Shown: positions 10,003 to 41,229, counted from the first letter of the stretch. The stretch is DNA of 64,000 nt from Pseudomonadota bacterium (GCA_027485695.1 JAIXQO010000004.1:194408-258407), one strand, 5' to 3'. A program made the numbers and translations. Notes: generated from the sequence alone by a model not told the origin.

Positions 10003-11066
10003 TTGACCGTACCCCGAATCGCAAGCCCCATCGGGACGGCGATCAACGATGCGGCATCTTGAAGAAGCTCAGGAGGGATCCCCTTCATCGAAGACGTAAT
10101 GCGTGCGAACGGGTTGAGAATCTGCGCCGGGATTCCAACCCGTTCTTCGACGATACGAGAGAGTTCCGGTAGTTTCGAGCTTCCGCCGGTGAGGAGCACG
10201 CTGTTGACCGGAGCTCCCGAAGACGAGGCGTTATAGAAGTCGAGGGAACGCTTGATCTCGACCGCAAAGTTCTCGGCCGCGACCATCATCAGTTCGACGA
10301 CTTCTTGAGGTGTCGCACCGTCGGCAAAATTCGTTTTCATGGATTCGGCTTCTTCGAAACTCAAATTGAGGTTCTTCTGGATGTCCGAGGTGAGGTTCCG
10401 TCCACCGAATGCGGAATCCTTGGTGTAAACGGGCACACCATTGTCGATCACTGCGACTTTGATGGCTGCGGAACCGATATCCACGAGCGCAGTTGCTTCA
10501 TTCGGAATTAAACCGTAGTTCGCCTCAAAAATATTTTGGAGCGCTAGGACTTCGGAATCGACGATCTTGATCTTAAGGCCGCCTCCTTGGATCGCGTTCG
10601 TAAAGCCTTCCATCACGGAGATTTTTGAAGCAATAAAAAGCACATCGGTTCGATGGTCCTTACCACGAGAAATCATGTGGTAATCCATCGAGACTTCACT
10701 CGGATCGAACGGAAGGTATTGTTCGGCTTCCCAGAAAACGGCGTCTTGAAGGTCCTTGACCTTCGGCACTTCGACGGTCATTCGCTTGATGATAACGGAG
10801 GCGCCCCCCAGGCCGGTCACCACTTGCTTCTGCGAAGGTTTTTTCTGCTTAACGATTTGACGAATGGCTTCGGTGACGGCGACTGGATTTACGATCTCGC
10901 GATTGACCACAGAATCTTCTGGCAAAGGAAACACACCGAAATTCGTCAATTGGAATGACTTGCCGGATTTCCTGAGCTCGACAAATTTGACCGATGACGA
11001 GCCGACGCTAATCGCGACTGCGTTTGAACCGGACGTGAGAGAAGCGAGTAAATCGCCAATTGCCAT
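9999..11066 (-). CDS. pilM: pilus assembly ATPase-like protein PilM (actin/FtsA fold)
   Basis: 355 aa with actin-like ATPase motifs (VDIGSAAIKVAV, LLTGGSSKLPEL). It is the first gene of the pilMNOPQ array. Confidence 0.85.
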   Translation of the reverse strand: MAIGDLLASLTSGSNAVAISVGSSSVKFVELRKSGKSFQLTNFGVFPLPEDSVVNREIVNPVAVTEAIRQIVKQKKPSQKQVVTGLGGASVIIKRMTVEVPKVKDLQDAVFWEAEQYLPFDPSEVSMDYHMISRGKDHRTDVLFIASKISVMEGFTNAIQGGGLKIKIVDSEVLALQNIFEANYGLIPNEATALVDIGSAAIKVAVIDNGVPVYTKDSAFGGRNLTSDIQKNLNLSFEEAESMKTNFADGATPQEVVELMMVAAENFAVEIKRSLDFYNASSSGAPVNSVLLTGGSSKLPELSRIVEERVGIPAQILNPFARITSSMKGIPPELLQDAASLIAVPMGLAIRGTVK

Positions 11067-11253: not shown

Positions 11254-11871
11254 TTATTGAAATGAGACTTCGCCGTTGTGGGTCGCAATGCGGACCACCG
11301 ACCAGCGATCGAGGCGCTCCGTCGCCAAGTCTTTGACGGGAGCGATAGCAAAAACGGTTGTTTCAAGACCATCTCCGCGACTCTGAAATCCGCGTTCTGG
11401 ATCATAACAAACTTCGGTAGAGACTTGTGGGATGCCGACTTGTTGGCCAATTGCCTGGGTCAAAACGACGAATCGCCGCCCACTGCGCGCACGAGCAACT
11501 AACCACTCCTTGAGAGGCTCACGTCCGACGGTCGAACGACAATCACGAATCGTCTCTGTTTTTATCCAGATCTCGTCCCCCCGCTTCTCCAGGATGATCA
11601 CTACGGGTGAGTGGCGGATAGAGCTCTCGAGGCGCACTTCCAGTACGGTCTCCGCGACTTTTCTTGCGATCCCCTCACCTAGCCACTTCGGGTACCGGTC
11701 TCGGACCGTGGGAACCGCGAGGATGGAAAGCGACAAAAAGAGAAAAAGCGCCAGAATCCAATTCTTTTTACGTTTGAATCGGACCTCGAGCTTTTCCCAA
11801 AGAACGAAGTTTCTCCACTCCGACTCTTTCCAACGATTTTCGGCTACATCAGATTCATGAAGGGGTGCCAT
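11254..11871 (-). CDS. hypothetical single-pass membrane protein between pilD and pilM
   Basis: 205 aa with one TM (WILALFLFLSLSILAV) and a periplasmic domain with no recognisable motifs. It overlaps the pilD 3' end by 28 nt. Confidence 0.4.
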   Translation of the reverse strand: MAPLHESDVAENRWKESEWRNFVLWEKLEVRFKRKKNWILALFLFLSLSILAVPTVRDRYPKWLGEGIARKVAETVLEVRLESSIRHSPVVIILEKRGDEIWIKTETIRDCRSTVGREPLKEWLVARARSGRRFVVLTQAIGQQVGIPQVSTEVCYDPERGFQSRGDGLETTVFAIAPVKDLATERLDRWSVVRIATHNGEVSFQ

Positions 11872-12665
11872 AAGATCTCGCCCAGAAGATGGTAATACAA
11901 TCCCCCAAGCACGAGAAAAGGTCCATAGGGGAGCGAGTATTTCATCAATCCTTCTGGAACCTCTCCTTCGAGCGAGCTCGGCCGTGATTTCTGACGTACG
12001 GCCAATACGATTCCGAACACGCTGCCCACGATCGAGCTAATAAAAATGGTCGTCAGGACACCGAGAGGACCGATGAACGCTCCAATCATCGCGATCAGCT
12101 TGATGTCGCCGCCTCCCAGGCCCATTTTTCCCGTACGCCACTCGTAGTACCAGGCGATCGCGTAGAAAAAGGCGAATCCCGCGATTGCACCAGAAAACGA
12201 TTGAATAACCGTAATAGACGGATCAAAGAACGAGAGCGCCAACCCCCAAACCAATCCACCTAAGCTCAAGCGATCCGGAATAATACGATGATCCAAATCG
12301 ATAAAAGTCACTGCAACTAAGATCGCGGCAAAAGGGAAATCCTTAAGAAATAGCCAATAAGAGAATCCAAAACGGATTTTCAGCGCGAGAAACAATAGAC
12401 CGGTCAGCAACTCAACCACCGGATAACGAAACGGGATAGAGGTCTTGCAATGGTGGCATTTGCCTCTCAATGCGAGGTAACTCAGTACGGGAATATTTTC
12501 GTAAAAGCGAATGGCGCCGCCGCATTTCGGGCAATGACTACCTGGAAACGCGATCGATTCGTCGCGGGGAACCCGGTAGATCACGACATTGAGGAAACTA
12601 CCGATAAACAAACCGGCCACTACCACAAAGACGTTGATCAAGAGCTCCGACGCTTCAAATAGCAT
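11844..12665 (-). CDS. pilD: prepilin peptidase / N-methyltransferase (A24 family)
   Basis: 273-aa polytopic protein with the tetra-Cys motif CPKCGGAIRFYENIPVLSYLALRGKCHHCK and conserved Asp-containing loops. Confidence 0.85.
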   Translation of the reverse strand: MLFEASELLINVFVVVAGLFIGSFLNVVIYRVPRDESIAFPGSHCPKCGGAIRFYENIPVLSYLALRGKCHHCKTSIPFRYPVVELLTGLLFLALKIRFGFSYWLFLKDFPFAAILVAVTFIDLDHRIIPDRLSLGGLVWGLALSFFDPSITVIQSFSGAIAGFAFFYAIAWYYEWRTGKMGLGGGDIKLIAMIGAFIGPLGVLTTIFISSIVGSVFGIVLAVRQKSRPSSLEGEVPEGLMKYSLPYGPFLVLGGLYYHLLGEILWHPFMNLM

Positions 12666-12668
12666 AGA

Positions 12669-13475
12669 CTATTCACGCCTCTGAATCAGAAGCGATGAGA
12701 CCAAGATCGATGCGAATGTGATCAGTATCGCATAAACACAAGAGGTGAGAACGAATGTGCCGCTCACCGGCAATCCGTAGGTGATAGTAAAACCGAGATT
12801 GAAATTTTCTAGGTTCGGCAAGATGAAGACCATCGATTTCAAAAGGGTCTTGACCACTCCTGGATCCATCTTGACGATCAGCGCATCGATTTCCGAAATA
12901 TTATTTCCTACGAGATAGAGACCAATCATGATGATGACCGTTTCAGACGAGGTCGAAAAAGACGCCACGATCAAGGTCAACCCGGCGAAGAACAAGCTCT
13001 GGATCGTCAGCAGGAAAACCCCATAGAAAAATGTTAGATTGAGCTTACCGCCAAAAGACAGGTAAAAAACTCCAATTGCGGCTGCGAGCACCGTGCAATT
13101 GAGAAGCAAGATGGCGAAAAGTCCAAAAAGCTTACCCAAAAGAAACTGAAAATGGGTAATCGGACGCGCCAGTGCCACGAAGATAGTTCGTCGCTCAAAT
13201 TCCTTCTGAATCATGCTTGCGCAGTGAAAAACCGCGATCATCATTCCCGACAAGTTCATCGCCGTGAACCCAAAATCGATGATCACTCGCTCAGGCGATA
13301 AGAATGTCAAATTCGATGCCGCAAACGCAATGCTCAAGAGCAAAACCGAGAGCAGAATGATGTTCAGCAAAACCTTATCACGCAGGATTTCCTGAAACGT
13401 GATTCTCGCGATTGCATATACCTGTGTGAACTTGATTCCCATGAGCTCACTTCCCTTTGCTTTCACGTGATTCAT
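12669..13475 (-). CDS. ABC-2 type transporter permease (PilI-like by position)
   Basis: 268 aa with 6 predicted TM helices. It overlaps the upstream ABC ATPase by 29 nt. The gene order matches pilG-pilH-pilI next to pilA in Myxococcus-type loci. Confidence 0.6.
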   Translation of the reverse strand: MNHVKAKGSELMGIKFTQVYAIARITFQEILRDKVLLNIILLSVLLLSIAFAASNLTFLSPERVIIDFGFTAMNLSGMMIAVFHCASMIQKEFERRTIFVALARPITHFQFLLGKLFGLFAILLLNCTVLAAAIGVFYLSFGGKLNLTFFYGVFLLTIQSLFFAGLTLIVASFSTSSETVIIMIGLYLVGNNISEIDALIVKMDPGVVKTLLKSMVFILPNLENFNLGFTITYGLPVSGTFVLTSCVYAILITFASILVSSLLIQRRE

Positions 13476-14364
13476 AGCGTTCTTCGAGGGATGACCTGAT
13501 CGGCGCTACACTGCGAATCCGTCCTCCTGCATCCATAATTGCCCGCAAGACCACTTCGACGTTTTCACGGCTATCGAGCTGAATGCGGACCGAGTTTGTC
13601 TTTTCAGATACCAGACTCATATGCGGGAGTCTCGGAAGCTGGGCGGCACTAAGTCCAGCAACCTCCACATCAACCCCCAATGTTTCTTGCTCAAGAAAGT
13701 TCGAGACGATTCCCGTGTCCACTATTTTGCCTTGGCGAATAATGGCTACGCGATCGCAAATCGCCTCTACGTCGGGAATCACGTGGCTGCTAAAGAGGAT
13801 GGTTCTCCCCTCACGAGAGAGCTCCAGGATCAACTCACGAATTTCCTTCCGCCCAGTGGGATCAAGACCGCTCATCGGTTCATCCAGAACGAGGAGCTCT
13901 GGGTCATGCAGGATCGCTTGCGCGATACCGATGCGCTGGAGCATACCTTTGGAATACTTCCTGAGCTCCAGTTTTCGGGCATGAGCCATTCCGACGCTCG
14001 CAAGCACTCGATCGACTCGAGACAATACGGTACTTTTTTTCATTCCAGATAACCGGCCGAAATAGACCAAGAACTCTTCCCCCGTGAGGAAGTCATGAAA
14101 ATACGGTCGCTCGGGCAGATAGCCAATGTTGGACTTAGCACTATTCTGAAACGTCGGAACGCCTTTCCAAAGGACGACTCCCTCGCGAGGCCGCTTCATC
14201 CCGACTACTAAATGGATCAATGTCGTCTTACCTGCGCCGTTCGGCCCCAAGAAACCGAATATCGAGCCTGTAGGCACCTGAAAAGAAACTCCCTTGAGAA
14301 CTTCAACTCGGTTGAGCCAGAAGCCGCTGCGAAAGGACTGTTGGACCTGATTAATTTCTAACAT
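13447..14364 (-). CDS. ABC transporter ATP-binding protein (PilH-like by position)
   Basis: Walker A (GPNGAGKTT), ABC signature (YSKGMLQRIGIAQA) and Walker B (LLVLDEPMSGLD) are all present. Confidence 0.85.
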   Translation of the reverse strand: MLEINQVQQSFRSGFWLNRVEVLKGVSFQVPTGSIFGFLGPNGAGKTTLIHLVVGMKRPREGVVLWKGVPTFQNSAKSNIGYLPERPYFHDFLTGEEFLVYFGRLSGMKKSTVLSRVDRVLASVGMAHARKLELRKYSKGMLQRIGIAQAILHDPELLVLDEPMSGLDPTGRKEIRELILELSREGRTILFSSHVIPDVEAICDRVAIIRQGKIVDTGIVSNFLEQETLGVDVEVAGLSAAQLPRLPHMSLVSEKTNSVRIQLDSRENVEVVLRAIMDAGGRIRSVAPIRSSLEERYESRESKGK

Positions 14365-14370
14365 TCGATC

Positions 14371-15288
14371 TCACTCTCCCACGAAAATGAGTTGCCTGGG
14401 GGTTTCACTGTTTAATCTTGAATCGTTCGCGACAAAAACTTTACCGCCCACCGGATCCCTAGCAAACCGCGGATTCTCACGCACAAACTTGACCCATCGG
14501 TTCTGTGGAGTATCCCGGCTTGGAAATCGCTTGAATGCTTCATTTGCCTCGGCCAAAAACCAGGCAATGGCGAGGTCCCGTTTCTTCTTTTCCCAAATCG
14601 CTTTCTCGCGTTCATCTTTGGCCGAACGCAACGACTGAGAAATGATTCGGTCCGCAACTTCGTAACGACCTACGGGATCGGAGAGCCGCTTAGACAATCT
14701 CTTAAGATAAATGGGAGCGTCCGGGAACGAATCGATACCCTCGAGCGATTCGGACGCTGCCGCGAGATTGTTCATTTCAAATAGCTCAACGTACGCCTTG
14801 GTCAGTGGGATACGCCATTCGTTTTGCCAATAGTCTCTAATAAATGATTCGGAATAGCGCTTACGAAGCCCGTCTCTCCGGAATGCGTCGCCCTTTGAAA
14901 TAATCAGATAGGCGCCTTCGTTGTCGTTACGAACAACCGTCAAGAAATTCGCACCCGCCGTATAGAGCGCAAAGAATGCGGGATCAACTTCGGTTGCGAG
15001 GTCGAGGTCATAAAACTGCTTGGCTCGTTTGCCGACCTGGACGCGCTTCCACTCGGCGGTCGTCAAGAATTTCAACATGAGCCAATCGACGGCCAAAGTC
15101 GATTGGCCGAAACTGATGATCCGAAAAAGATTGGGGTTCCAGGTATAGCCGACGTCATCCGTGATCTCTTGAGAGACGCGAGGTCGCGCCACCACAAGGT
15201 CCTGTTGGACGAAAAGGCCGACGAGACAAACCACGCCGGCCGTGATCAAGGTCATAAATGACATACCCATAACTCTAGTCTGCATCAA
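14371..15288 (-). CDS. membrane-anchored periplasmic protein upstream of the ABC pair (PilG-like accessory?)
   Basis: 305 aa with an N-terminal TM (FMTLITAGVVCLVGLFV) and no known motifs. The assignment rests on gene order only. Confidence 0.4.
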   Translation of the reverse strand: MMQTRVMGMSFMTLITAGVVCLVGLFVQQDLVVARPRVSQEITDDVGYTWNPNLFRIISFGQSTLAVDWLMLKFLTTAEWKRVQVGKRAKQFYDLDLATEVDPAFFALYTAGANFLTVVRNDNEGAYLIISKGDAFRRDGLRKRYSESFIRDYWQNEWRIPLTKAYVELFEMNNLAAASESLEGIDSFPDAPIYLKRLSKRLSDPVGRYEVADRIISQSLRSAKDEREKAIWEKKKRDLAIAWFLAEANEAFKRFPSRDTPQNRWVKFVRENPRFARDPVGGKVFVANDSRLNSETPRQLIFVGE

Positions 15289-15489: not shown

Positions 15490-16158
15490 ATGAAGATGAA
15501 AACAATGACCAGCCTGCCACCAAAGCAATCTGCAACCTTGAAGAACAGACTTGGCTTCACTCTTGTCGAGTTGATGATCGTCGTCGCCATCATTGGTATC
15601 TTGGCTTCGATCGCGATTCCGAACTTTCAGAAATACCAAGCCCGGGCTCGTCAGCGTGAGGCGAATATCGCGCTGTCCGCCATCTATACTTCCCAAAAGG
15701 GATTTATCGCAGAATCGAACACCTATACGGCATGCTTGAGACAGGCCGGTTACGTTCCTGAAACTAACGGAGCTAACGTCAACGCCGTCAAACGCTACTA
15801 CGCTGTCGGATTCACGACTGCCGTCGTGGCAGCAGCAAGCACTTGTGGACCAACGGGCAACCAAGCATGCCTAGCCTACGACTACTCCGATGCAACGCCA
15901 GTGGCTTGTACCGGCGGTTCGAACGCAGGCTTCACGTCAGCGGTAACTACTGTGGACATCAACTACTCGGCTACGGCCAAAGCGTTTAGCGCTGCAACCG
16001 GTCCTACGATCGCAAGCAACGCGGCAACTCTCGTCATCGCTCAGAACTCGTTCATCGCCGGCGCTGCCGGGAACGTATCTTCGACCAGCTCGCTCTACGA
16101 CCAGTGGACGATCAACGAAGGTAAAATTCTGAAGAACACGACCAACGGTATCCAGTAA
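15490..16158 (+). CDS. pilA: type IVa major pilin
   Basis: The class III signal is ...KNRLG|FTLVELMIVVAIIGILASIAIPNFQKYQ, with Phe+1 and Glu+5. The C-terminal half is Ser/Thr/Ala-rich and carries Cys pairs. A Shine-Dalgarno sequence AAGGA lies upstream. The leader is 22 aa from the ATG at 15490, 20 aa from the ATG at 15496, and 6 aa (MKNRLG) if the in-frame TTG at 15547 is used. Confidence 0.9.
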   Translation: MKMKTMTSLPPKQSATLKNRLGFTLVELMIVVAIIGILASIAIPNFQKYQARARQREANIALSAIYTSQKGFIAESNTYTACLRQAGYVPETNGANVNAVKRYYAVGFTTAVVAAASTCGPTGNQACLAYDYSDATPVACTGGSNAGFTSAVTTVDINYSATAKAFSAATGPTIASNAATLVIAQNSFIAGAAGNVSSTSSLYDQWTINEGKILKNTTNGIQ

Positions 16159-16196
16159 GCCTGATCGATACTGCTTAGATCGTACAAAAGTATATA

Positions 16197-16231
16197 GCCC
16201 CCCAGTCTAGATTGGATTGGGGGGCTTTTTT
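16197..16231 (+). terminator. rho-independent terminator after pilA
   Basis: The stem gcccccca/tggggggc (8 bp, all G:C but one) with a 13-nt loop is followed by TTTTTT. Confidence 0.8.
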
Positions 16232-16246
16232 GTTCATAATCGTTTC

Positions 16247-17953
16247 ATGCTCTTATCGAAGGAAAAGAATTCGCCCTATAAGATCGCGCTATTCGCGGCA
16301 ATTCCGATCCTGACCTTGCTCTCCCAGGTGATCCCGCTGATTTCAGCAGATCCCCTCTTGGAATTCGACGACCTCATCCTTATTCGTTCCGTTCAATCCG
16401 AATCGGTCTTGTCGTACTTTCAAAAGCTTTTGTCGCTCAACGCGATCGACATTCAACCGGTCCGTGACCTCCTCATTTTGGGGGAAATCCGCTTCTCAAA
16501 AATTTTCTTTTCCCCGTTTCATCTCGTGAATGTTTTCCTCGTCGCGACCGCCTGCTTTTTTTGGTTTCGAATCACGAAGAAATGGGTGACCACCCAAGGA
16601 CATGCTTGGACCGCAATGACCTTGGCTCTCATTTGGGTCTTGAGTCATGGTGCCTGGGTATTTAGCTTGAGCTGGGTCGCCGCCCAGAAACACTGGCTCG
16701 CCCTCATCTTTTTGTTGTTGGCCATCGACTGCGCAAGACTCGAAACACATCAGCAGCAGCAGAGGCTCTCGGTTTCAAAGCTCTCGGTCTTCTTCGCTGT
16801 ACTGGGCATGCTTTCCCATCCGATTCTTTGCCTCGTGGGACTGCTCCCCTTCCTATTCTCTTGGTTCTCAAAGTCACGCCCCAAGCTAATCTCTCCGACA
16901 ACGACACTCGCATTGCTCTCACTTTTACTCCTCGGCCTGAACTACCACTACTATCAGTCGATCTATCCAGGCCTCGTTGGGTTCGCGAAGTTCCAACCTG
17001 CGTACGACTTCACATTCGTTTCGACCCTTCTGCTGCGATTCGGGCGATATTTCTTCAATCTGGTTTGCCCCGCATTCATTGCAGTCACCTACTCACCTGC
17101 CTCCTGGCAAAATATTGTCGGCATACCAATCGCCGTCGTGATGGGGTACGCACTCCTCAAGCTACTGCCCAGACTACAAGCATTGGTCGTCGGCGCACTC
17201 ATTTGTATTCCGTTTTTCGCGACGGCGCCCTTTCAGCAGGGTATATTCTTGTCCGATACTTATCTTTTGTTTCCAGTGGCGGTAGTGGGCTGGCTGTTGG
17301 CCCGCCTCGTAAATGAAGTTCCTCGTGCCGGATTCATCGCCGCCGTTTTGATCATCGTCAATCTAGCAACCTCATTCTCTATACCCGAGAGCTTCAAAAG
17401 CGATACCAACCTCTGGATACGCTCGTACCAAGTTGAACCGGATCACAACAGTTTGCTTTCAGTGATCTACGCACAACTTCAACGTGGGCTTCTGAATGAA
17501 GCGCGTTACAATTTGGAAATCGCACAAGAATGGATTCCCGAGAGCGCCCTTCTCAAAGACTACTGGTGCGACCTCCATCGACAAGACGTCCAGAAGCCAG
17601 CTCGAGAGCGCATTGAAAAACTGGAAACCCTGGTGAAATCCAGTGATTCCTACTCCTGCCGAGAGGCATTGATCATTTTGCTTCTCGCTGAAAAACGAGA
17701 CAAAGACGCGATCTCAATTGCAATGAACGTAGGTCGACTCAACGTCACAGACTCACGACACACGGCTGAGAATCTAAGCGCTCGCCTCTACATAGCCTGC
17801 ACAAACGAGAAGATCGAAAACTGCGAACTCATTAAAGAGCGGTGGGTTGACCTGAGCCGGAGAAGGATTCTCCCGTGGAACGAAGCCGTCTACCAAACTG
17901 CCCTTAAAAATATCACCGATGCCAAGATCCGCGACGCAATCAATCGAGAATAG
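16247..17953 (+). CDS. polytopic membrane protein with C-terminal TPR-like domain, paralog 1; GT-C-type glycosyltransferase or Wzy_C-like oligosaccharyltransferase (candidate pilin-modifying enzyme)
   Basis: ~11 TM segments. An early loop carries the DD motif LLEFDDLILIRS, and further conserved motifs are DIQPVRDLL, HLVN and HGAWVFSLSWVAAQKH. The C-terminal ~160 aa form helical repeats. The track start at 16217 is a TTG inside the terminator stem, so the ATG at 16247 is used. Confidence 0.5.
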   Translation: MLLSKEKNSPYKIALFAAIPILTLLSQVIPLISADPLLEFDDLILIRSVQSESVLSYFQKLLSLNAIDIQPVRDLLILGEIRFSKIFFSPFHLVNVFLVATACFFWFRITKKWVTTQGHAWTAMTLALIWVLSHGAWVFSLSWVAAQKHWLALIFLLLAIDCARLETHQQQQRLSVSKLSVFFAVLGMLSHPILCLVGLLPFLFSWFSKSRPKLISPTTTLALLSLLLLGLNYHYYQSIYPGLVGFAKFQPAYDFTFVSTLLLRFGRYFFNLVCPAFIAVTYSPASWQNIVGIPIAVVMGYALLKLLPRLQALVVGALICIPFFATAPFQQGIFLSDTYLLFPVAVVGWLLARLVNEVPRAGFIAAVLIIVNLATSFSIPESFKSDTNLWIRSYQVEPDHNSLLSVIYAQLQRGLLNEARYNLEIAQEWIPESALLKDYWCDLHRQDVQKPARERIEKLETLVKSSDSYSCREALIILLLAEKRDKDAISIAMNVGRLNVTDSRHTAENLSARLYIACTNEKIENCELIKERWVDLSRRRILPWNEAVYQTALKNITDAKIRDAINRE

Positions 17954-17956
17954 GCA

Positions 17957-19630
17957 ATGAACAATTATCTTAAAGCGAATATCGCACTGACTTTCGCTTC
18001 CGCTCTAATTTTCTTGGTCTGCTTCTGGCCGACGCTTCAATCGGACGTACTACTCGGCTACGACGATACGATCCTGATCCAACCTCTAAAAAATTTGTCG
18101 GCCCTCGACTATTGGAAGAACCTGATTGCGATGCGGATCTACGACGTTCAACCCATTCGCGACCTTCTTTTTATGGTCAATATCCGCCTCAGTGCACTCG
18201 GCTTACCTGCCTTTCACCTCGTCAACCTCTGCTTAGGCGTCGGAATTCTGGCGCTTAGTACACGGCTCATGAGTTTTTTCGCGTTCTCAAAGAGTTCAAT
18301 TTGCGCGGGATTAACATGGACGATCACTCACGGAGCTTGGGTTTGGAGCTTATCCTGGGTGTCCGCCCAGAAGCACCTGGGGGCGCTCTTCTGGTTGTTG
18401 GTCGCAGTATGGGTTTACGCGAGACGATCGTCGGAAAAACAGGAACTACGAGGCCGTGACTGGTGGATGATCGGGTTGGCCTATGCGCTCTCTTCGCTCT
18501 CCCATCCGATCTACTTACCTCTTGGACTCCTACCGCTCCTAGTCCGCCTCTTGAATCGCCGATCTATTCCTCAGTCATTCAAGCCAAGTGGATGGGTGGG
18601 TCCGCTCGCCCTTGCTGCAATCACGCTGACTTGCTTAGCGCTCAACGCCTACTACTACCTGAAAATCTACCCCTCCCAGAGCGAGGTCGCTAAATTTCTG
18701 TCACAGGAGAACACTATAGACGGACAACTCCTCCTTCAGGCTGGGAGGTACTTTTTCAATCTACTCTTACCGATCCAAGTCGCCGCACACTACTGGCCCG
18801 GATCCGCTGCCTCCTTGATCGGTATCCCTGTCGGCGTTGCGATGACCTGGACGCTCTTTAAGTTGGTCCCAAGAATGTGGGCGTCGATCGCATCGATGAT
18901 GATCGCACTACCTTTTCTGATGACCGCCCCGTTTCAAAAGAACGTATTTTTTTCAGATACCTACTTACTTCTCCCCGTACTGACGCTCTCAGTGCTTCTT
19001 ACCGCCTGCACTGAACGGTTTCCCCGATCGACTTGGGCGATTTGGATCATGAGCGCCGTGCAGCTCTATTTTTCCTATCCGATTCCTTCGAGTTTCACCT
19101 CCGACGAGGCACTCTGGACGAGATCCTACGAGGTGTCACCCAACCCCTCATCTCTCTTTGCACTGGTTTCCATACATCTCGAGCGAGGCAACCTGACTGA
19201 AGCCGGAACAAACCTCGATATCCTAGAGAAATGGATGCCAGAAAATCCACGCTATCCACGAAACCGTTGCATCTGGCTCAAAAAAACGGCTGATCGTGAT
19301 CCTTCTCGTCGTCTGCAAAACAAAAAATGGATGGAGGAACTCTACCGAACAAGCCAAGACTCCGTCTGTGCGCTTTTTCTCGTCGATTTGTACCAAGCGG
19401 AGGGAGCATGGTCACAGACCACCGATATTGCCTTGTCACTGACATCGCTCAACTCCGAAAATCAATGGGACGGCGAACGGCTCGCAGCAGGACTGACACA
19501 ATTATGCCAGCGCACGAATCGAACTGATTGCGCATCTGTGAGCGCCCATATTCGGTCACTCTGCACTCACCGGCCCAAGCCTTGGGACGAAAATGCCTAC
19601 CTCAAGAATTTAAGTGAGTTTCAAAAATAA
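17957..19630 (+). CDS. polytopic membrane protein with C-terminal TPR-like domain, paralog 2 of 16247..17953
   Basis: It shares collinear motifs with paralog 1: LLGYDDTILIQP, DVQPIRDLL, HLVN, HGAWVWSLSWVSAQKH, QAGRYFFNLLLP, SDTYLLLPV and WTRSYEVSPN. It starts 3 nt after the paralog 1 stop. Confidence 0.5.
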   Translation: MNNYLKANIALTFASALIFLVCFWPTLQSDVLLGYDDTILIQPLKNLSALDYWKNLIAMRIYDVQPIRDLLFMVNIRLSALGLPAFHLVNLCLGVGILALSTRLMSFFAFSKSSICAGLTWTITHGAWVWSLSWVSAQKHLGALFWLLVAVWVYARRSSEKQELRGRDWWMIGLAYALSSLSHPIYLPLGLLPLLVRLLNRRSIPQSFKPSGWVGPLALAAITLTCLALNAYYYLKIYPSQSEVAKFLSQENTIDGQLLLQAGRYFFNLLLPIQVAAHYWPGSAASLIGIPVGVAMTWTLFKLVPRMWASIASMMIALPFLMTAPFQKNVFFSDTYLLLPVLTLSVLLTACTERFPRSTWAIWIMSAVQLYFSYPIPSSFTSDEALWTRSYEVSPNPSSLFALVSIHLERGNLTEAGTNLDILEKWMPENPRYPRNRCIWLKKTADRDPSRRLQNKKWMEELYRTSQDSVCALFLVDLYQAEGAWSQTTDIALSLTSLNSENQWDGERLAAGLTQLCQRTNRTDCASVSAHIRSLCTHRPKPWDENAYLKNLSEFQK

Positions 19631-19697
19631 TCACGATCTCAAAAACTGATCTGATTTCCATTTCTTTCCAAACGGTTTCAACCGAAAATATAACGAT

Positions 19698-20690
19698 ATG
19701 CCCAACTGGCGGAAACCCACTGCACACCAGAATTTGGTTTTCATACTGATTTTTGCCCTGGGAGCCGCTTCCGGTGGTTCTTACACCTATTCTTTCTTTT
19801 CGCTTCAAAAAACCGAAGTCCGCAAGGTCTCTCCGCTTCTAGATCCAGCACTCGCCTACAGGAATTCTGGTGAATACCAACTTCCATTGGATTTCAGGCT
19901 CAAAGAAAGCGAGTCCTTGCTCCGCACGCGAATCCAACAGGAGATTGAGGACAACACGATTCAGGAAGCTTCGATTTACTATCGTAGCTTCAACAACGGA
20001 CCCTGGTTCGGCATCAACGAAGATGCAAGGTTCCTACCTGGCAGTCTCTTGAAACTCCCGCTGGCCATTGCACTATTCAAGCAATCGGAATCGGATCCAA
20101 ATCTCCTGGAACGACAGATTGCGTTCAATAACCCGGATTTACTTCCACTCTATAACTTGCAGTTCGCGGAACCCGCAGAACGCCTCGAGATCGGCCGTTC
20201 TTATAGCGTGAGGACACTGATTGAGCGCTCCCTCATATACTCTGATAACGTCGCTGCAAACTTACTTGAACGCACGCTCGGCGTGGAAGCCTGGGCTCGC
20301 CTCTCCAAGGATCTTTACGTTCCGATTGATCGCAACACCGCACACTCCCGGGGGCTCACGTCCAAGGAATACAGCACGTTCTTCCGCGTTCTTTACAACT
20401 CATCATACTTGAGCGAGACAAATTCAGAGTTTCTCCTCAATGTTTTGAGCAAATCCACGTTCATCGACGGGCTTCGAGCCATCGTTCCCGAAGGTACGAT
20501 TATCGCCCACAAATTCGGCGAGACCCTCTTCGGCGATAAAAAGAAGTTCGCCTACCTCAGTGATTGCGGGATTATCTACGGCAAGACCCAACCGCACATC
20601 GTTTGCGTTATGTTGCGTAGCGACTCTCGCAACAAAATGAATCGGGAGCTATTCATGCGATTATTCCGAGATCTTCCGATCATTTATTAA
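19698..20690 (+). CDS. membrane-anchored serine hydrolase with class A beta-lactamase / PBP-like fold
   Basis: N-terminal TM (LVFILIFALGAASGG). The active-site triad of motifs is S-x-x-K (PGSLLKLPLAIAL), SDN (LIYSDNVAANLL) and a K-x-G variant (AHKFGET). Confidence 0.5.
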   Translation: MPNWRKPTAHQNLVFILIFALGAASGGSYTYSFFSLQKTEVRKVSPLLDPALAYRNSGEYQLPLDFRLKESESLLRTRIQQEIEDNTIQEASIYYRSFNNGPWFGINEDARFLPGSLLKLPLAIALFKQSESDPNLLERQIAFNNPDLLPLYNLQFAEPAERLEIGRSYSVRTLIERSLIYSDNVAANLLERTLGVEAWARLSKDLYVPIDRNTAHSRGLTSKEYSTFFRVLYNSSYLSETNSEFLLNVLSKSTFIDGLRAIVPEGTIIAHKFGETLFGDKKKFAYLSDCGIIYGKTQPHIVCVMLRSDSRNKMNRELFMRLFRDLPIIY

Positions 20691-20747
20691 CCAAAGACCT
20701 CGCCTGCTGCCTCGACTCCGCAAGTCCATTCACCTTATTATAGAAAC

Positions 20748-23198
20748 ATGTTCACTCAGATCACTGTATTCGGTTGGGCTTGGGTTCTCTGGAAAACAAA
20801 CGGTTGGTACTCCCCGGGATACCTCTTCACGTTTCCGGCGCTCATCTTAACTGGGTATTGGGCGGATCGCAGATTCGGGGATCGCGTTCTCACGCCAAAG
20901 CAGAAAACGGTTTTCGCCCTCGCATTCTTCAGCCTCTTGGGAACGATTCGGCCTCAGCTTCTCTATCCTCAGTCATCCCTGTTTCTCGCCGCCATCCAAG
21001 CCGCATTCATCATGGTGCTGATCGTCGCCGCTTGGCTCGCCATACGCGACCAATGGAGGCACCAGCTCTCGATCTTACTATTTGCGGTGTCCGCTCTCGT
21101 CCTCGTTTTCGGAATCCTCTGCTCTCCCTATCCACTGATCGACGTATGGATCTACATTCAACAAGCGGTCGATGGAATTCAAAACGGGATCAATCCGTAC
21201 TCCATCGCTTTTCCGAGTGTCTACGCGGGCAAACCTCCTGCCGCTTTTCCGTATAGCCCAGTCACACTCCTGTATTTGACGCCTTTTCACGCAATACTCG
21301 GCGACGTTCGTTACGGCCTGGTCGCGGCATTGTTGATTTCGGGCCTACTCTGCCTAGGTACCAAATCGGACAAGTCTAGCAAGTACCTGTATACCAGCCT
21401 CATCCTGCTTTTCCCGTCGACTTTGAATGTCATTGAGCAAAGCTGGATCGATCCCATTAGCCTCATCCCTCTAGCGATGGCCATCCGGGGTCTCAAATCT
21501 AAGAAGAACTCCTGGTTCATCGCCGGAGTACTTTTACTCCCCGCAGTAAAACATTATAACTTCGCGTTCGTACCATTTCTGCTGCTCGCACATCCATCAT
21601 TCAGAAACTGGAAGAAAGCGCTCGCGCTCTTCGCAGGATCGGTGGCGTTCTTTGTTACTCAGTTTATTGCATTTACTCCGTCCAGCAAAACCTCGACTGG
21701 ATTCTTGAAGGAGATGCTATTCCCCACATTCGATCTTACAGAAATTCGCCACTTTTCACTCGGTGACTGGTTAATCGCCCATCAGATTCCCATTTCCGCC
21801 AACGAGGGACTCCTGATTTCTCTCCTCATTGGAGTCACATCCGTGGCCGTATTCATTTGGAAAAAGCGCCATTTACCCAGTGATTCAATCCTTTGGGGCA
21901 GCTATGCATTGATGGTTTTTTTCCTCCTCTATCCAAATACGGCGCTCAACTACGTTTGGTTCGCAGTCATCGCTTGGTGGATGAACGAGCTTTCTCGTCC
22001 CGAAGAAAGCACTGCGCCGCTCGTGAACGGTCTCGCCCCGATCGATGCTTTGTATTTCGTCACCCGCATCTTCCTGATCTTCGGTATGGAGCCCTATATT
22101 TCTGACGTGGGTCTCTATTTCAAATATTTTAGTGAGTGGCATTTCGGCGGACTCATGCCTTACCGAGACTTCTCGTTCGAATACCCACCTTTCGCATGGA
22201 TCCCGATCGTTTTTCCCGCTTCCTTGTTCTCGATCAACTCTGAGTCTCTTTTGGCCTATCGATTTTGTTTCATGAGTCTCATTGTTGCGGCTGATTTTTC
22301 CATTTTCCGATTCTTCAGACGGATCTCCGAACCCAAAGCTGCCTATTTCTACGTATTCTCAATCCTCGCTATGGCTCACCTCGTGCTCGATCGGATTGAT
22401 TTGATCGTCGGTTTTTTTCTGATTCTTCCTTTGTTCCCATTCGCGCGTACGAATCGATTTTTCTCCCAAGACATCATCATCGGCATGGGCGGGCTTTTTA
22501 AGATCTCCCCAATGATTGTGAGCGGGCTGCCGGAGCTTTTGAAAAAACGAGGCATCTTCCGAGCTACTCTCGGGGCGTTGGTCTCGGTCTCACTCTTCGT
22601 CATCGGCATGGCGTGGATGCTCGACTTCTCCGACGGCAAACCAACGTTATTCAACTATCACTCTCTTCGTGGCATCCAGGTCGAATCACTCATCGGAAAC
22701 GTCGCTCTTTTCCTCGCAACCATCTCGCCAGAATTGGGAATATCCGTTGGTAACAACTATGGAGCACAACATTTAAGCGGCTTTCCAGATTCGGTTGTTC
22801 TATTCGGAAAACTGCTTTCAATCGTTTCTGTTTTTGCGACTTTTGGGTGGGTCGTACGCAACGCGCTCGTGCATAAGAAGGTGGAACTGGCTCAGGCGAC
22901 TTTCCTCATGATTCTCACATTCGTGACCTTCAACACTGTATTGTCACCGCAATTCATCCTTTGGCTGATACCCGTCGGAATATTTGCAAGTATCGAACAG
23001 AAACGAAAATATGATCTCTATACGCTTTTTTTAATATCGGTGATCACCGGAGTCCATTTTCATTTCTACTGGAGCTACGTTCAAAAAGAGATCCCATTCC
23101 TCTTGAACCTGATGCTCCGTAATTTGCTACTCGTAGGACTCTGGGCAGTGAATATCTACCGGATCTCTCTAAACAAAGATAAATCGATGACTCGTTGA
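20748..23198 (+). CDS. 816-aa integral membrane protein (more than 20 predicted TM segments); possibly a duplicated GT-C/DUF2029-like mannosyltransferase-type module
   Basis: Hydrophobic almost throughout, with Trp/Tyr/Pro-rich loop motifs (WIYIQQAVDGIQNGINPYS, FNTVLSPQFILWLIP). The call is tentative. Confidence 0.4.
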   Translation: MFTQITVFGWAWVLWKTNGWYSPGYLFTFPALILTGYWADRRFGDRVLTPKQKTVFALAFFSLLGTIRPQLLYPQSSLFLAAIQAAFIMVLIVAAWLAIRDQWRHQLSILLFAVSALVLVFGILCSPYPLIDVWIYIQQAVDGIQNGINPYSIAFPSVYAGKPPAAFPYSPVTLLYLTPFHAILGDVRYGLVAALLISGLLCLGTKSDKSSKYLYTSLILLFPSTLNVIEQSWIDPISLIPLAMAIRGLKSKKNSWFIAGVLLLPAVKHYNFAFVPFLLLAHPSFRNWKKALALFAGSVAFFVTQFIAFTPSSKTSTGFLKEMLFPTFDLTEIRHFSLGDWLIAHQIPISANEGLLISLLIGVTSVAVFIWKKRHLPSDSILWGSYALMVFFLLYPNTALNYVWFAVIAWWMNELSRPEESTAPLVNGLAPIDALYFVTRIFLIFGMEPYISDVGLYFKYFSEWHFGGLMPYRDFSFEYPPFAWIPIVFPASLFSINSESLLAYRFCFMSLIVAADFSIFRFFRRISEPKAAYFYVFSILAMAHLVLDRIDLIVGFFLILPLFPFARTNRFFSQDIIIGMGGLFKISPMIVSGLPELLKKRGIFRATLGALVSVSLFVIGMAWMLDFSDGKPTLFNYHSLRGIQVESLIGNVALFLATISPELGISVGNNYGAQHLSGFPDSVVLFGKLLSIVSVFATFGWVVRNALVHKKVELAQATFLMILTFVTFNTVLSPQFILWLIPVGIFASIEQKRKYDLYTLFLISVITGVHFHFYWSYVQKEIPFLLNLMLRNLLLVGLWAVNIYRISLNKDKSMTR

Positions 23199-25129
23199 TC
23201 CTTGGCTTCGAATACAGTCATTGCCGGATGTGCAGAAATCCAAGAGTCGATCCAGTAGCTATAGTAGGTTCTCACGCCGATATACCGGTCATCCAAGAGG
23301 TATCGCACCTTCTCTGAGATTAACCGACGAATGATGACATCTGGGGACAACGACTCCAAGTCACCGACTGGTACGGGGTTTGAATCCAGCCAGGACTTAA
23401 CGGGCAATCCAGAGATGTAGTAGAGTTGATTGTCGCCGGTGGTGAGAATTTTTTCTCCCGGACGCACGTTCATCCTGAGCCAGGCCTTAGATGAACCGGC
23501 CCGAAAATCATCTCTTATTGCTAAATGCCAATCTGATATTTTTGAGTCTGTGAGCGCATGAAAAACAGGCGCGTCTCCATAGTTACCCGGTCGAATGGAG
23601 TCCCCGTAGGCGACCAGGGATAGAAATATACACGAAAGCACCGATACTTGAATTCTCGAACTGAGTGCTTGAATCAGAATGGATATTCCAATCACGGTTA
23701 ACCAACCGATCAAAGCTATCTCCGCTCCTAAGTGTCGGTCGGTCAGCCTGGCTTGTTGCAAGAGGAGTAATATGAATACGGCGACCAAAATCCCGGACAA
23801 CCCCATCCAAATACGTAGTGCTGGAGATTCTTTTTTCTTCCTCAGTATCACGCCAACTGCGACACCAATCAAAACCAGGAGAATCCAGCTCTCACTTGAT
23901 ATGATCGATGCTAGTCGTTCTAAACGTTGACTGAATTCCAATGAGTCTTTGGGCAAGTAGTAGCGGACTAGAGTCAACGCCCCATCTGTCATGCCTCGAC
24001 TGGGGAATAGATCGTCCATGATTGGAAAAATCGGATTCTGCGTGAAGATCACGTTTCTCACCGCCAGCGGAAGCGCAGCTAAGCCAAAAAAACCAATTGA
24101 TACTCCCCACTCTCGAACACTCGATTTTCGTATCCAGAGTGCTAACGCAACAATCGCAATCGCCAGTGGCCCATTAGTGAACTTAGAAACGCCCGCGACA
24201 CCGAGGATAAATGCGCCCACACGCGGTCTATCAAAAACCAAAGACAACCCGCCGACTAGGAAAAATAGAGACCCCCAGTCATTCTTGGCTAGGACAGTGA
24301 CCCATAATAGATCGCGGACTGAAATAGCGGCTAAAGCCGCAACCAGGGCAATGAGATCGTTTGCTTGGAACAGTCGTCTTGCTGCGTAGTAAGCGGCGAA
24401 ATAAGTTCCCATAAAACCTAAAACCGTGTGAAGCAGTTGTGCAAAAATCTGACCTTCGATCAGTCCGCGTCCAACTTCACCACTCAGCAGCCGCATGCCA
24501 AACAGGATGAGATACTCCCACTGTCCGGCATGAAAAATGACGATATCTCCTGGCGGAAGATATACCGAGCCATGATCCATCCAAAGTCTAGGAGCATAGA
24601 GGTGATAAATGAGAGGATCTGATGCCGCCCAGGGGCCTAGCGACTTAAACACTCGAAAAAGGAAAAAAACTGCCAAGTACAGAAGTATCCCTCGTTCGAT
24701 CCAAGACGCCAATTTCAGGGAACTAATGATTGGCCCGAGTTTTCTGGGTCGTACAAGTGCAGAGCCCATGCAAACACAGATCGCGAACAAGAGTCGAGAC
24801 TCTGGACCAATAGATCCAAAACCTAGGAACAATACAAAAAATGAGATGAAAGCCGCCCCCAAGATGAGGGAAACAAGCCAGTGTTCTTTGGCCACGCGAA
24901 ATAGAATCCGCGATAGACCGTCGCCCCACCCTACCAAGCTGAGTAGAAAAGTCGCAAAGACCGCAATGACCGATAGAATCGCAACAAAGTCGAGTTGGGC
25001 GTCCGGATTTCTCCCATCACCTAACACCAACCAACTCACCCAAAGAATGAATGAAGAACTGATCAGAGTGGGGAAATGAATCAATGAACCGCGAGAATCG
25101 TCAGTCCGAGCTAGATTCATCCTCGTCAC
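23156..25129 (-). CDS. 657-aa polytopic membrane protein with C-terminal periplasmic domain, ArnT/PMT-like (GT-C) glycosyltransferase candidate
   Basis: ~12-13 TM helices are followed by a ~130-aa soluble C-terminal domain. The gene converges on 20748..23198 with a 43-nt overlap, and its start overlaps the sigma54 activator stop by 29 nt. Confidence 0.4.
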   Translation of the reverse strand: MTRMNLARTDDSRGSLIHFPTLISSSFILWVSWLVLGDGRNPDAQLDFVAILSVIAVFATFLLSLVGWGDGLSRILFRVAKEHWLVSLILGAAFISFFVLFLGFGSIGPESRLLFAICVCMGSALVRPRKLGPIISSLKLASWIERGILLYLAVFFLFRVFKSLGPWAASDPLIYHLYAPRLWMDHGSVYLPPGDIVIFHAGQWEYLILFGMRLLSGEVGRGLIEGQIFAQLLHTVLGFMGTYFAAYYAARRLFQANDLIALVAALAAISVRDLLWVTVLAKNDWGSLFFLVGGLSLVFDRPRVGAFILGVAGVSKFTNGPLAIAIVALALWIRKSSVREWGVSIGFFGLAALPLAVRNVIFTQNPIFPIMDDLFPSRGMTDGALTLVRYYLPKDSLEFSQRLERLASIISSESWILLVLIGVAVGVILRKKKESPALRIWMGLSGILVAVFILLLLQQARLTDRHLGAEIALIGWLTVIGISILIQALSSRIQVSVLSCIFLSLVAYGDSIRPGNYGDAPVFHALTDSKISDWHLAIRDDFRAGSSKAWLRMNVRPGEKILTTGDNQLYYISGLPVKSWLDSNPVPVGDLESLSPDVIIRRLISEKVRYLLDDRYIGVRTYYSYWIDSWISAHPAMTVFEAKDQRVIDLSLFREIR

Positions 25130-41215: not shown

Positions 41216-41229
41216 TGATCTCCTCGACC

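Follow-up and report, generated by a model that had tools for sequence, protein, structure and literature searches.

Why are two tandem membrane proteins with TPR domains encoded downstream of the major pilin gene in a type IVa pilus cluster, and what might they act on? Bdellovibrionota and Myxococcota move by means of type IV pili, which Bdellovibrio also uses to enter its prey. The pilins of these groups are unusually large (PMC11046646), and our search of the literature turned up no account of glycosylated pilins in Bdellovibrionota. The two proteins, here called A and B, are encoded within a 64,000-nucleotide stretch of DNA from a Pseudomonadota bacterium (GCA_027485695.1 JAIXQO010000004.1:194408-258407), referred to below as the window. 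A sequence-only reading of the window had taken them for duplicated enzymes acting on a polyprenyl-linked donor at the periplasmic side, with either a GT-C or a Wzy_C/PglL-type active site.

Tandem genes A and B in the pilus locus

The cluster surrounding A and B comprises a complete type IVa pilus set (pilQPONM, pilD, an ABC pair, pilA, pilC, pilT and pilB) and is of the Myxococcus type (Myxococcus/Bdellovibrio). From this cluster type and three GTDB matches (Oligoflexia, Bdellovibrio and Bacteriovoracaceae) we infer a Bdellovibrionota-like host. As the sequence-only reading had proposed, A and B are paralogs: they are co-directional, only 3 nt separate the stop of A from the start of B, and BLASTP aligned them collinearly over their full length (192/545 identities, 35%; 54% positives; E=3e-96), a likeness far above chance. 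The shared motifs quoted in that reading are all present and collinear, including LEFDDLILIRS/LGYDDTILIQP, DIQPVRDLL/DVQPIRDLL, FHLVN, HGAWVFSLSWVAAQKH/HGAWVWSLSWVSAQKH, GRYFFNL and SDTYLL(F/L)PV, with one correction: its pattern W(I/T)RSYEV.P is wrong for A, which reads WIRSYQVEP where B reads WTRSYEVSP. The DD motif in the first loop of each protein is presumed to be a catalytic or metal-binding acidic pair. For A, the start was placed at ATG 16247, where the alignment of its homolog P0003 (50% identical to A) begins at the N-terminus; the upstream TTG 16217, which sits within the terminator stem, was rejected.

PilA matched Pfam N_methyl (4e-08) and the NCBIfam model of Myxococcus-type PilA (NF041775, 2.6e-26, under the model cut-off), and its globular part contains 22% Ser+Thr and 4 Cys. 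A motif scan of the window gave pilA as the sole pilin-like gene, which leaves the earlier suggestion that the duplication serves two pilins without a second pilin. Directly 3′ of pilA, the 89 nt from its stop to the ATG of A hold a strong terminator-like hairpin with a folding energy of -34.6 kcal/mol (z=-4.7; 0/200 shuffles as stable). Because this hairpin ends just 20 nt upstream of the ATG, A and B are probably expressed, at a low level, via read-through from pilA. The two genes would also be tightly coupled to each other.

Two further co-directional genes follow B. The first encodes a 330-aa protein with SLLK, SDN and KFG motifs (read in translation) that matched Pfam Beta-lactamase2 (9.7e-31) and the NCBIfam class A beta-lactamase model (3.8e-22, under the cut-off); in the related locus L005 the GT-C gene (P0004) is followed by a homolog with 52% identity, and the gene may belong to the same module as A and B. 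The second encodes an 816-aa protein whose C-terminal half (~residues 435-800) is homologous to GT87-type, mannosyltransferase-like GT-C proteins, two of its homologs, P0185 and P0192, matching Pfam GT87 at 2.2e-10 and 8.3e-10; judged by this homology, it is possibly a further periplasmic glycosyltransferase of the same island. Donor-synthesis genes (GT2, GtrA-like flippase, DprE1/2) were absent from the 42 window ORFs scanned with Pfam.

Table 1. Features of the pilA-A-B region, in window coordinates
Feature	Position	Strand	Description
pilA	15490..16158	+	Major type IVa prepilin; 222 aa, mature ~200 aa
Hairpin	16196..16226	+	Intrinsic terminator-like; 14-bp stem, 8 GC pairs, T-tail
Paralog A	16247..17953	+	568 aa; ATG 16247, stop 17953; predicted GT-C membrane domain ~residues 1-376, then predicted C-terminal periplasmic TPR ~386-568
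DD motif of A (D41-D42)	16367..16372	+	Start of first periplasmic loop (predicted)
Paralog B	17957..19630	+	557 aa; ATG 17957, stop 19630; predicted 11-TM GT-C domain residues 1-373, then predicted periplasmic TPR ~383-557
DD motif of B (D36-D37)	18062..18067	+	Periplasmic loop EL1 (predicted)
Beta-lactamase-fold serine-hydrolase-like protein	19698..20690	+	330 aa; membrane-anchored, class-A fold
Polytopic membrane protein	20748..23198	+	816 aa; two modules (homolog search, BLAST mapping)

Fold, topology and conservation of the A/B family

The family of A and B numbers at least 736 cluster representatives; it carries no annotation and is missed by current Pfam and NCBIfam models. Scanned alone against Pfam, A matched 0 families at E<=1 and B gave just two spurious sub-threshold matches (RIC1 and PrgI); no NCBIfam model was reached by either, and both stay below the Pfam gathering scores of PMT_2, PMT and TMTC_DUF1736. 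Scanning 71 family members against Pfam returned TPR models only, bar single stray matches. Among PDB sequences, neither phmmer with A and B nor a profile of the TM region only found a match at E<=10, and the family profile matched TPR proteins only. With B alone as the query, a word-indexed search for homologs yielded just B itself, A and one fragment.

The TM-only family HMM matched a set of proteins over their entire membrane domain, and several of these pass the Pfam PMT_2 gathering score (P0171, 44.1 bits; P0175, 30.0; P0170, 29.5; P0180, 27.0; P0166, 26.6), P0171 additionally passing PMT and P0180 TMTC_DUF1736. Comparison of the TM-only family profile with these five PMT_2-positive proteins by hhalign resulted in a probability of 99.1% (E=6.7e-19, 371 columns), in a register that places the family DD on the DD of those proteins. 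Homology of the A/B membrane domain to PMT_2 proteins is thereby demonstrated at the profile level, through intermediates and profile-profile comparison, in agreement with the PMT/TMTC/ArnT-type reading proposed earlier from the first-loop DD. For the confident structure model, 18 GT-C structures ranked first among the 60 matches listed. In a Foldseek comparison with the PDB, all E-values were >0.02, and ArnT and PglB were present at TM-scores of just 0.37-0.42.

The helices of the model and positive-inside statistics predict 11 TM helices in an N-in/C-out arrangement with the TPR domain at the C-terminus. In the short cytoplasmic loops, K+R averages 1.5-3.3 and D+E <=1.0 (71 sequences); charges are missing from the short periplasmic turns, and EL1 has a net acidic character. 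In the predicted topology, DD, QPxRD, FHLxN, HGAW...AQKH, SHP, NxxYY, GRYF and SDTY cluster where the membrane borders the periplasm, several of them taking the forms QP(I/V)RD, H..W...(Q/R)KH and S(H/Q)P in A and B, so that the active-site loops, on this computational evidence, would face the periplasm, as the sequence-only reading had expected of its DD and His motifs. A Cys pair in the C-terminal domain (C517/C525 in the TPR domain of B), 97% conserved across the family, would fit an oxidising compartment. With these motifs predicted to be non-cytoplasmic and a GT-C relationship found, the transferase interpretation stands.

The conserved motifs of the pair extend to the family as a whole. 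Among 68 other members (residues numbered as in B), conservation is 100% for D36, D69, D334 and Y336 and at least 97% for D37, P66, R68, W134, K139, H140, P184, Y234 and G289, with D37, the second D of the DD motif, at 97%; none of these residues is lost in A or B. Because A and B each retain every invariant residue of the family, both copies look active. Two residues that are near-invariant elsewhere in the family are altered in A and B: HG stands in place of HP, and Q138 in place of R. Combining the multi-span GT-C fold, the first-loop acidic motif and the predicted non-cytoplasmic active-site loops that characterize the GT-C superfamily, the best reading of A and B is as putative paralogous inner-membrane GT-C enzymes with a C-terminal TPR domain, from a divergent PMT_2/TMTC-like branch without annotation. 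On the strength of the motif map and the confident structure model, the family could be annotated as GT-C/TPR protein glycosyltransferases.

Candidate acceptor and possible division of labour

The gene order of the window recurs in related loci. L001 shows a pilin 3′ end, a hairpin and an ATG upstream of an A-like gene, and L005 has the same pilA to GT-C arrangement. In L003, L013 and L014, family members have homologous pilins nearby that are likewise rich in Ser/Thr (20-27% S+T). In L014 the space between pilA and the family member holds genes for a GT2 enzyme and for methyltransferases, and this GT2 enzyme is contextual evidence for a polyprenyl-phosphate-linked donor. By motif scan, a pilin stands beside a family member in just 5/30 loci, or 4/13 when only loci with at least 3 kb on both flanks are considered; L001, whose flank has the pilin 3′ end only, is a further case beyond these five. 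One family member sits between two proteins of >3,300 aa. Most members are without an adjacent pilin, and the acceptors of the family would therefore not be restricted to pilins.

For the window itself, PilA is the presumed acceptor, and on balance we consider it probable that A and B are both TfpW/TMTC-like transferases and use polyprenyl-phosphate sugars for O-glycosylation of this Ser/Thr-rich pilin. A polyprenyl-phosphate-linked sugar would be made in the cytoplasm, flipped over the membrane and bound in a periplasmic pocket, where the DD pair would serve as catalytic base and/or metal ligand. The TPR domain would hold the protein acceptor. The Ser/Thr hydroxyls of PilA, the neighbouring major pilin, would receive the sugar while the pilin is still in the inner membrane and not yet built into a pilus. 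The likeliest arrangement is that each copy has its own site or sugar, or that the two work in sequence, one adding the first sugar and the other extending it. The analysis shows paralogy, the GT-C fold, PMT_2-type homology, a TPR domain, a computed topology and, in several genomes, linkage to pilA; we infer the enzymatic activity, the donor type, the pilin as acceptor and the division of labour.

The competing explanation that we take most seriously, although it appears somewhat unlikely, is that A and B are genuine GT-C enzymes whose acceptor is an envelope or secreted protein, a lipid or a glycan (e.g. lipid A, as for ArnT, or exopolysaccharide), their position after pilA being an accident of lineage. 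Arguing against such an accident, the pilA-terminator-GT-C layout recurs in three independent subclade sequences (the window, L001 and L005), pilins also occur near the more distant members in L003, L013 and L014, and the 20 nt between terminator and start codon leave no room for a promoter of their own. The TPR domain, moreover, matches the protein-acting TMTC and TfpW enzymes rather than ArnT.

A more elaborate scheme, which we regard as unlikely, would join A, B, the beta-lactamase-fold gene and the two-module GT87-like gene into a self-contained periplasmic line that builds a stepwise multi-sugar, possibly further-modified pilin glycan, with A and B initiating different sites or sugars and with cassette turnover diversifying the pilus surface. 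Polyprenyl-phosphate monosaccharides would be the donors, without an oligosaccharyltransferase, and the resulting surface diversity could help the predatory (Bdellovibrionota-like) host to escape phages or to recognise prey. Fast cassette turnover is suggested by the decayed L005 copy and by GT-C genes that are just 35-37% identical where neighbour genes are 52-59% identical.

That A and B form an obligate heterodimer like yeast Pmt1-Pmt2, together constituting one pilin glycosyltransferase, seems distinctly unlikely. L005 keeps one intact GT-C copy, the other being only a decayed remnant in the 1-kb gap after pilA (DD changed to DA, an in-frame stop, family-profile match E=2.4e-4), and L002, L003, L004, L013 and L014 each list a single family copy among their ORFs. 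One GT-C copy is thus enough elsewhere, as L005 shows with its one intact and one decayed copy, and we consider obligate pairing less likely than a difference in site or sugar or sequential action. The two donor or acceptor specificities suggested in the sequence-only reading are a speculative proposal. Far less probable still are Wzy_C/PglL-type O-oligosaccharyltransferases that use the conserved His to move a glycan en bloc from undecaprenyl diphosphate to the pilin, the other option left by the sequence-only reading: the pilin-specific oligosaccharyltransferases (TfpO/PilO and PglL) are likewise polytopic and often pilA-linked, and A and B do have conserved His at the predicted periplasmic face, but neither protein has a Wzy_C Pfam match at E<=1, the profile-profile homology goes to PMT_2 proteins, and this identity is ruled out on fold, GT-C structures coming first and no O-antigen-ligase-type fold appearing among the 60 matches listed.

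Comparison with known systems

Among the closest known systems are the PMT family (Pmt1/Pmt2/Pmt4), ArnT and the TMTC enzymes, and bacterial PMT_2+TPR proteins (Pfam PF13231 and PF08409; PMT clan) are uncharacterised relatives of A and B. TMTC1-4 have 11 TM helices, a cytoplasmic N-terminus, a DD (M1) in EL1 and a non-cytoplasmic C-terminal TPR domain (PMC7801869), all of which A and B are predicted to share; unlike the bacterial A and B, they are eukaryotic and ER-resident and use Dol-P-Man on cadherins. Of the TMTC motif set M1-M7 (DD; SHKSYRP; RxD; KE(T/Q)xxT; DW; PxxP; ERxxY; PMC7801869), M1 is kept in A and B, M2 is replaced by QPxRD with only the Pro kept, M3 RxD by (R/Q)KH and M4 KE(T/Q) by S(H/Q)P, M7 aligns with SDTY with its acidic residue kept, and M5 and M6 are without a clear equivalent. 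The KE of M4 has been modelled as a metal/phosphate ligand (PMC7801869), and its loss points to an unusual active-site variant in the A/B family. Given the change of KE to (H/Q)P and the two altered residues (HG and Q138), the chemistry or donor of A and B may differ, or their activity may be altered.

TfpO/PilO and PglL resemble A and B in being pilin-directed, polytopic, often pilA-adjacent and active at the periplasmic face; they belong to another fold and family (Wzy_C), to which A and B showed no relationship, and transfer pre-built Und-PP-linked glycans en bloc.

By analogy, the closest functional model is TfpW of Pseudomonas aeruginosa, the pilin D-arabinofuranosyltransferase of group IV strains (Pa5196/PA7). 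This GT-C enzyme (AAM52060.1), whose gene comes directly after pilA, is predicted to span the membrane 11 times; the DDX in its first periplasmic loop is essential, the proline-rich YX6PFX7P motif falls in one of the late periplasmic loops, and the TPR domain is likewise periplasmic. It modifies several Ser/Thr of the pilin (bioRxiv 10.1101/2020.04.19.049825). Matched to this published description, A and B have in common with TfpW the position downstream of pilA, the 11 predicted TM helices, the DD in loop 1 and the TPR domain. The Y-x6-P-x-x7-P pattern is also found in A and B, in the equivalent loop EL4 before the last TM helices (Y265-x6-P272-I-x7-P281 in B and Y-x6-P-A-x7-P in A), although the F of the TfpW motif is conserved in neither. 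TfpW comes from a single gene (646 aa), A and B from a tandem pair (557-568 aa), and the scanned part of the window contains no D-Araf pathway genes. Unlike TfpW, A and B reside in a Myxococcus/Bdellovibrio-type cluster with a large pilin of 200 aa and are followed by the extra GT87-like and beta-lactamase-fold genes.

If A and B do glycosylate PilA, TfpW-type modification, that is, GT-C-mediated transfer from monosaccharide donors, would reach beyond Gammaproteobacteria and provide a testable handle on phage evasion or surface recognition by such pili. Set beside TfpW, A and B make a credible, not very surprising new example of a pilin-linked GT-C enzyme.

A and B are tandem paralogs within a type IVa pilus cluster

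The tandem membrane proteins A (568 aa) and B (557 aa) are encoded within a complete Myxococcus-type gene cluster for type IVa pili. Their ORFs are co-directional, separated by 3 nt, and match exactly the span for which the sequence-only reading had proposed a tandem duplication. BLASTP aligned the two proteins collinearly over 545 residues (35% identity, 54% positives, E=3e-96), and the collinear motifs quoted in that reading were all found, except for SYEV.P in A, where the sequence is WIRSYQVEP.

Features of the window and of the loci carrying homologs of A and B
Feature	Locus	Coordinates	Strand	Remark
pilQ	window	5994-7919	-	
pilP, pilO, pilN, pilM	window	7950-11066	-	
pilD	window	11844-12665	-	
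ABC-2 permease	window	12669-13475	-	
ABC ATPase	window	13447-14364	-	
PilG-like protein	window	14371-15288	-	305 aa, without Pfam family
pilA	window	15490-16158	+	
pilA terminator hairpin	window	16196-16226	+	14-bp stem, z=-4.7
A to 816-aa membrane protein	window	16247-23198	+	four genes
A	window	16247-17953	+	ATG 16247 to stop 17953
B	window	17957-19630	+	ATG 17957 to stop 19630
beta-lactamase-fold protein	window	19698-20690	+	
816-aa membrane protein	window	20748-23198	+	
657-aa ORF	window	23156-25129	-	without Pfam match at E<=0.001
sigma-54 activator	window	25101-26195	-	364 aa
pilC	window	26195-27406	-	
pilT	window	27424-28497	-	
pilB	window	28504-30225	-	
Bat/MoxR-type operon	window	34774-42246	-	
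hairpin after pilin	L001	66-103		
PilG-like protein	L003	5996-6679		
gap between pilA and P0004	L005	6986-8000		
beta-lactamase-fold gene	L005	9857-10852		
P0151 and giant ORFs	L008	1-13848		
PilG-like protein	L013	3-755		
second methyltransferase	L014	1742-2530	+	
three genes between homolog and pilA	L014	4707-8154	-	

Mature PilA has about 200 aa, with Ser plus Thr making up 22% of its globular part, in line with the 'large pilin' class described in all Bdellovibrionota (PMC11046646). The strong, very stable hairpin terminator lies directly 3' of pilA, and only 20 nt separate its end from the ATG of A, so that A and B can hardly have a promoter of their own; they are probably expressed by read-through past the terminator. 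Such expression is usual for pilin accessory genes. At L001, the locus of P0003 (50% identical to A), the 119 nt 5' of the gene hold a pilin 3' end (...VNGFQ-stop), a hairpin and the ATG in the layout of the window, the hairpin sequence being different, and this conserved layout implies attenuated read-through of the downstream genes. An alternative start of A at TTG 16217 was rejected, as it lies inside the terminator stem and the closest homolog of A aligns from the ATG.

Downstream of B, the membrane-anchored class A beta-lactamase-fold protein (Pfam Beta-lactamase2, 9.7e-31) carries the motifs SLLK, SDN and KFG; in the window as in L005 (52% identity), its gene lies directly 3' of the GT-C gene(s). 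The polytopic 816-aa protein, which ends the pilA-A-B gene string, consists of two modules, residues ~50-303 resembling 450-470-aa membrane proteins without Pfam family and residues ~435-800 resembling Pfam GT87 matchers (P0185, 2.2e-10; P0192, 8.3e-10), and the protein resembles a fusion of two GT-C-like enzymes. In a Myxococcus-type cluster a PilS/PilR pair is expected where the window has the 657-aa ORF and the sigma-54 activator. The activator has an AAA+ domain from residue 7 and lacks a receiver domain, and no histidine-kinase domain was recognisable in the 657-aa ORF (Pfam, E<=0.001). Further along, and unrelated to A and B, a type III glutamine synthetase gene lies upstream of a Bat/MoxR-type operon encoding BatD, two VWA proteins, a DUF58 protein and a MoxR AAA_3 ATPase.

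A GT-C fold with PMT_2-type homology

Scanned as single sequences, A and B gave no Pfam or NCBIfam match and no match among PDB sequences, and a word-indexed homolog search returned the pair and one fragment. Exhaustive profile search revealed 736 cluster representatives at E<=1e-3, 137 of them at E<=1e-30, with lengths of 480-600 aa in nearly all of the 150 family matches listed; the family is real, yet unannotated. In a pattern scan, all three species-representative genomes carrying matches belonged to Bdellovibrionota. In the 71-sequence family alignment D36, D69, D334 and Y336 (B numbering) are invariant and ~25 more positions are conserved at >=90%, giving the signatures DP(I/L)L-x-(Y/R)DD-xxL, D(I/L/V)QP(V/I)RDLS, FHLTN, HP....SVAW(I/V)(S/A)ARKHLL, LS(Q/H)PI, N..YY, GRYF and F.SDTYLL. 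A and B keep every invariant residue and both look catalytically intact; with the L005 homolog P0004 they have three derived replacements in common (HP to HG126, R to Q138 and WP to xG).

With this alignment AlphaFold2 modelled B confidently (pLDDT 93.3, pTM 0.92); three aligned sequences gave pLDDT 55. The structural matches of the model (with an unlabelled figure for each) included ALG12 (18.8), Pmt4 (18.2), ALG3 (17.4), AglB (16.8), STT3B (16.5), Pmt2 (16.3), ArnT (15.2), AftB (15.1), GPI mannosyltransferase I (14.7) and PglB (14.5); Foldseek was uninformative, all its E-values being >0.02, though ArnT and PglB were in its list. The Wzy_C/PglL identity offered earlier as the other possibility is rejected because of the fold, no WaaL/PglL-type structure being among the 60 structural matches listed.

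Profile search of a large database retrieved distant relatives, several bearing PMT_2, PMT or TMTC_DUF1736. Five passed the PMT_2 gathering score of 26.1 bits in hmmscan: P0171 (44.1 bits; PMT passed too, 25.5 bits), P0175 (30.0), P0170 (29.5), P0180 (27.0; TMTC_DUF1736 passed too, 27.2 bits) and P0166 (26.6). Aligned by hhalign with these five proteins, the TM-only family alignment gave a probability of 99.1% (E=6.7e-19, 371 columns), with DD falling on DD, QP(V/I)RD on YRP, FHLxN on xHxxN, HP....SV.W on HPxH(T/V)E.VA, S(Q/H)P on SKE and SDTY on (A/S)(D/E)Rxx. Together with the fold, this bears out the proposed GT-C relationship. TMTC enzymes are described by motifs M1-M7, the KE pair of M4 being modelled as a metal/phosphate ligand (PMC7801869); the A/B family retains M1 (DD), the M2 Pro and the M7 acidic residue, whereas M3 RxD is changed to (R/Q)KH and the KE pair is replaced. 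Judged by profile-profile homology and this motif comparison, the family is a divergent, non-standard branch of the PMT_2/TMTC-like GT-C group.

The B model has 11 membrane helices. Across the 71 sequences, Lys+Arg (1.5-3.3) outnumber Asp+Glu (<=1.0) in the five short loops of one side; on the opposite side the short turns lack charge, and the long first loop has a net acidic composition (5.8 against 8.3). Because these charges follow the positive-inside rule, the N-terminus is predicted to be cytoplasmic, with every conserved motif and the C-terminal domain in the periplasm, which agrees with the side previously assigned to the DD and His motifs; no cytoplasmic placement was found. A Cys pair conserved in 97% of the family (C517/C525 in B) is consistent with an oxidising compartment. 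The C-terminal ~175 residues are TPR (family profile against consensus TPR proteins, E=7e-16; OGT TPR domain, 1e-6).

Recurrent linkage of the family to pilA

The linkage does not extend to the whole family: of 30 loci covered by a motif scan, 5 had a pilin gene near the family member, as had 4 of the 13 with >=3 kb on both sides. L001 adds a further case, with just the 3' end of a pilin gene in its flank. The pilins of the loci described here are mutually homologous (36-53% identity, Ser/Thr 20-27%). Gene order is pilA, PilG-like, dnaJ, homolog in L003 (Bdellovibrio sp. HCB185ZH); PilG-like, homolog, convergent pilA in L013; and homolog, 581-aa membrane protein, methyltransferase, GT2 enzyme (Pfam 4e-22), pilA in L014. 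Together, the L014 genes resemble a complete module for glycosylation from lipid-linked sugars, adjacent to the pilin. There, the 581-aa protein is polytopic and without Pfam match, the GT2 enzyme (336 aa) has a C-terminal stretch that is hydrophobic by eye, and a second methyltransferase flanks the family member on its opposite side. Several loci have a PilG-like gene alongside pilA, the GT-C gene or both: the protein of the window is 59% identical to that of L005 and distantly related to those of L003 and L013 (E 1e-5 to 1e-10), and in L013 the gene overlaps the GT-C gene start.

L005 has a window-type pilus cluster in the order pilA, 1-kb gap, P0004, beta-lactamase-fold gene. The gap has no ORF >=62 aa and contains a decayed N-terminal family remnant, ..PILAFDAP.. 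(DD to DA), an in-frame stop and then ..YPLRDISHWID, which matched family HMM positions 16-81 (E=2.4e-4 among six frames; the BLAST match is weak). This suggests an ancestral tandem pair of which L005 lost one copy. P0004 shares 35-37% identity with A and with B, against 52-59% for the neighbouring genes, and this higher divergence of the GT-C genes suggests rapid turnover at the locus.

Proposed function and comparison with TfpW

By analogy with GT-C enzymes generally (PMT, TMTC, ArnT and the Pseudomonas aeruginosa pilin glycosyltransferase TfpW), A and B would use a polyprenyl-phosphate sugar as donor and the DD pair as catalytic residues, with the TPR domain selecting the acceptor and Ser/Thr residues of PilA as the targets. 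That other envelope proteins or glycolipids are the acceptor instead of pilin is unlikely, but finds some support in the wider family, which is not pilin-restricted: in L008, P0151 (615 aa) is flanked by two giant ORFs (3,443 and 3,332 aa), with RCC1/WD40-like repeats in the downstream one, and the family may also glycosylate large surface proteins. For two copies acting on pilin, a difference in site or in sugar, or action in sequence, is preferred to an obligate heterodimer, because A and B both look intact and are tightly coupled, and because single-copy relatives exist, both in L005 and in the other family loci with ORFs listed.

TfpW, compared here by its published description, is the closest functional model: a self-interacting 646-aa protein with 11 predicted TM helices and a periplasmic TPR domain, whose DDX motif in loop 1 is essential and whose gene is directly 3' of pilA (bioRxiv 10.1101/2020.04.19.049825). 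Its Y-x6-P-x-x7-P pattern also occurs in the corresponding loop of A and B. These results aid annotation of the family and make pilin glycosylation in Bdellovibrionota-type pili testable, with little surprise for the specialist: A and B are putative pilin-adjacent GT-C/TPR glycosyltransferases of a known sort, previously unannotated, and distinctive in that they occur in tandem, lack the KE motif and have additional GT87-like and beta-lactamase-fold neighbours.
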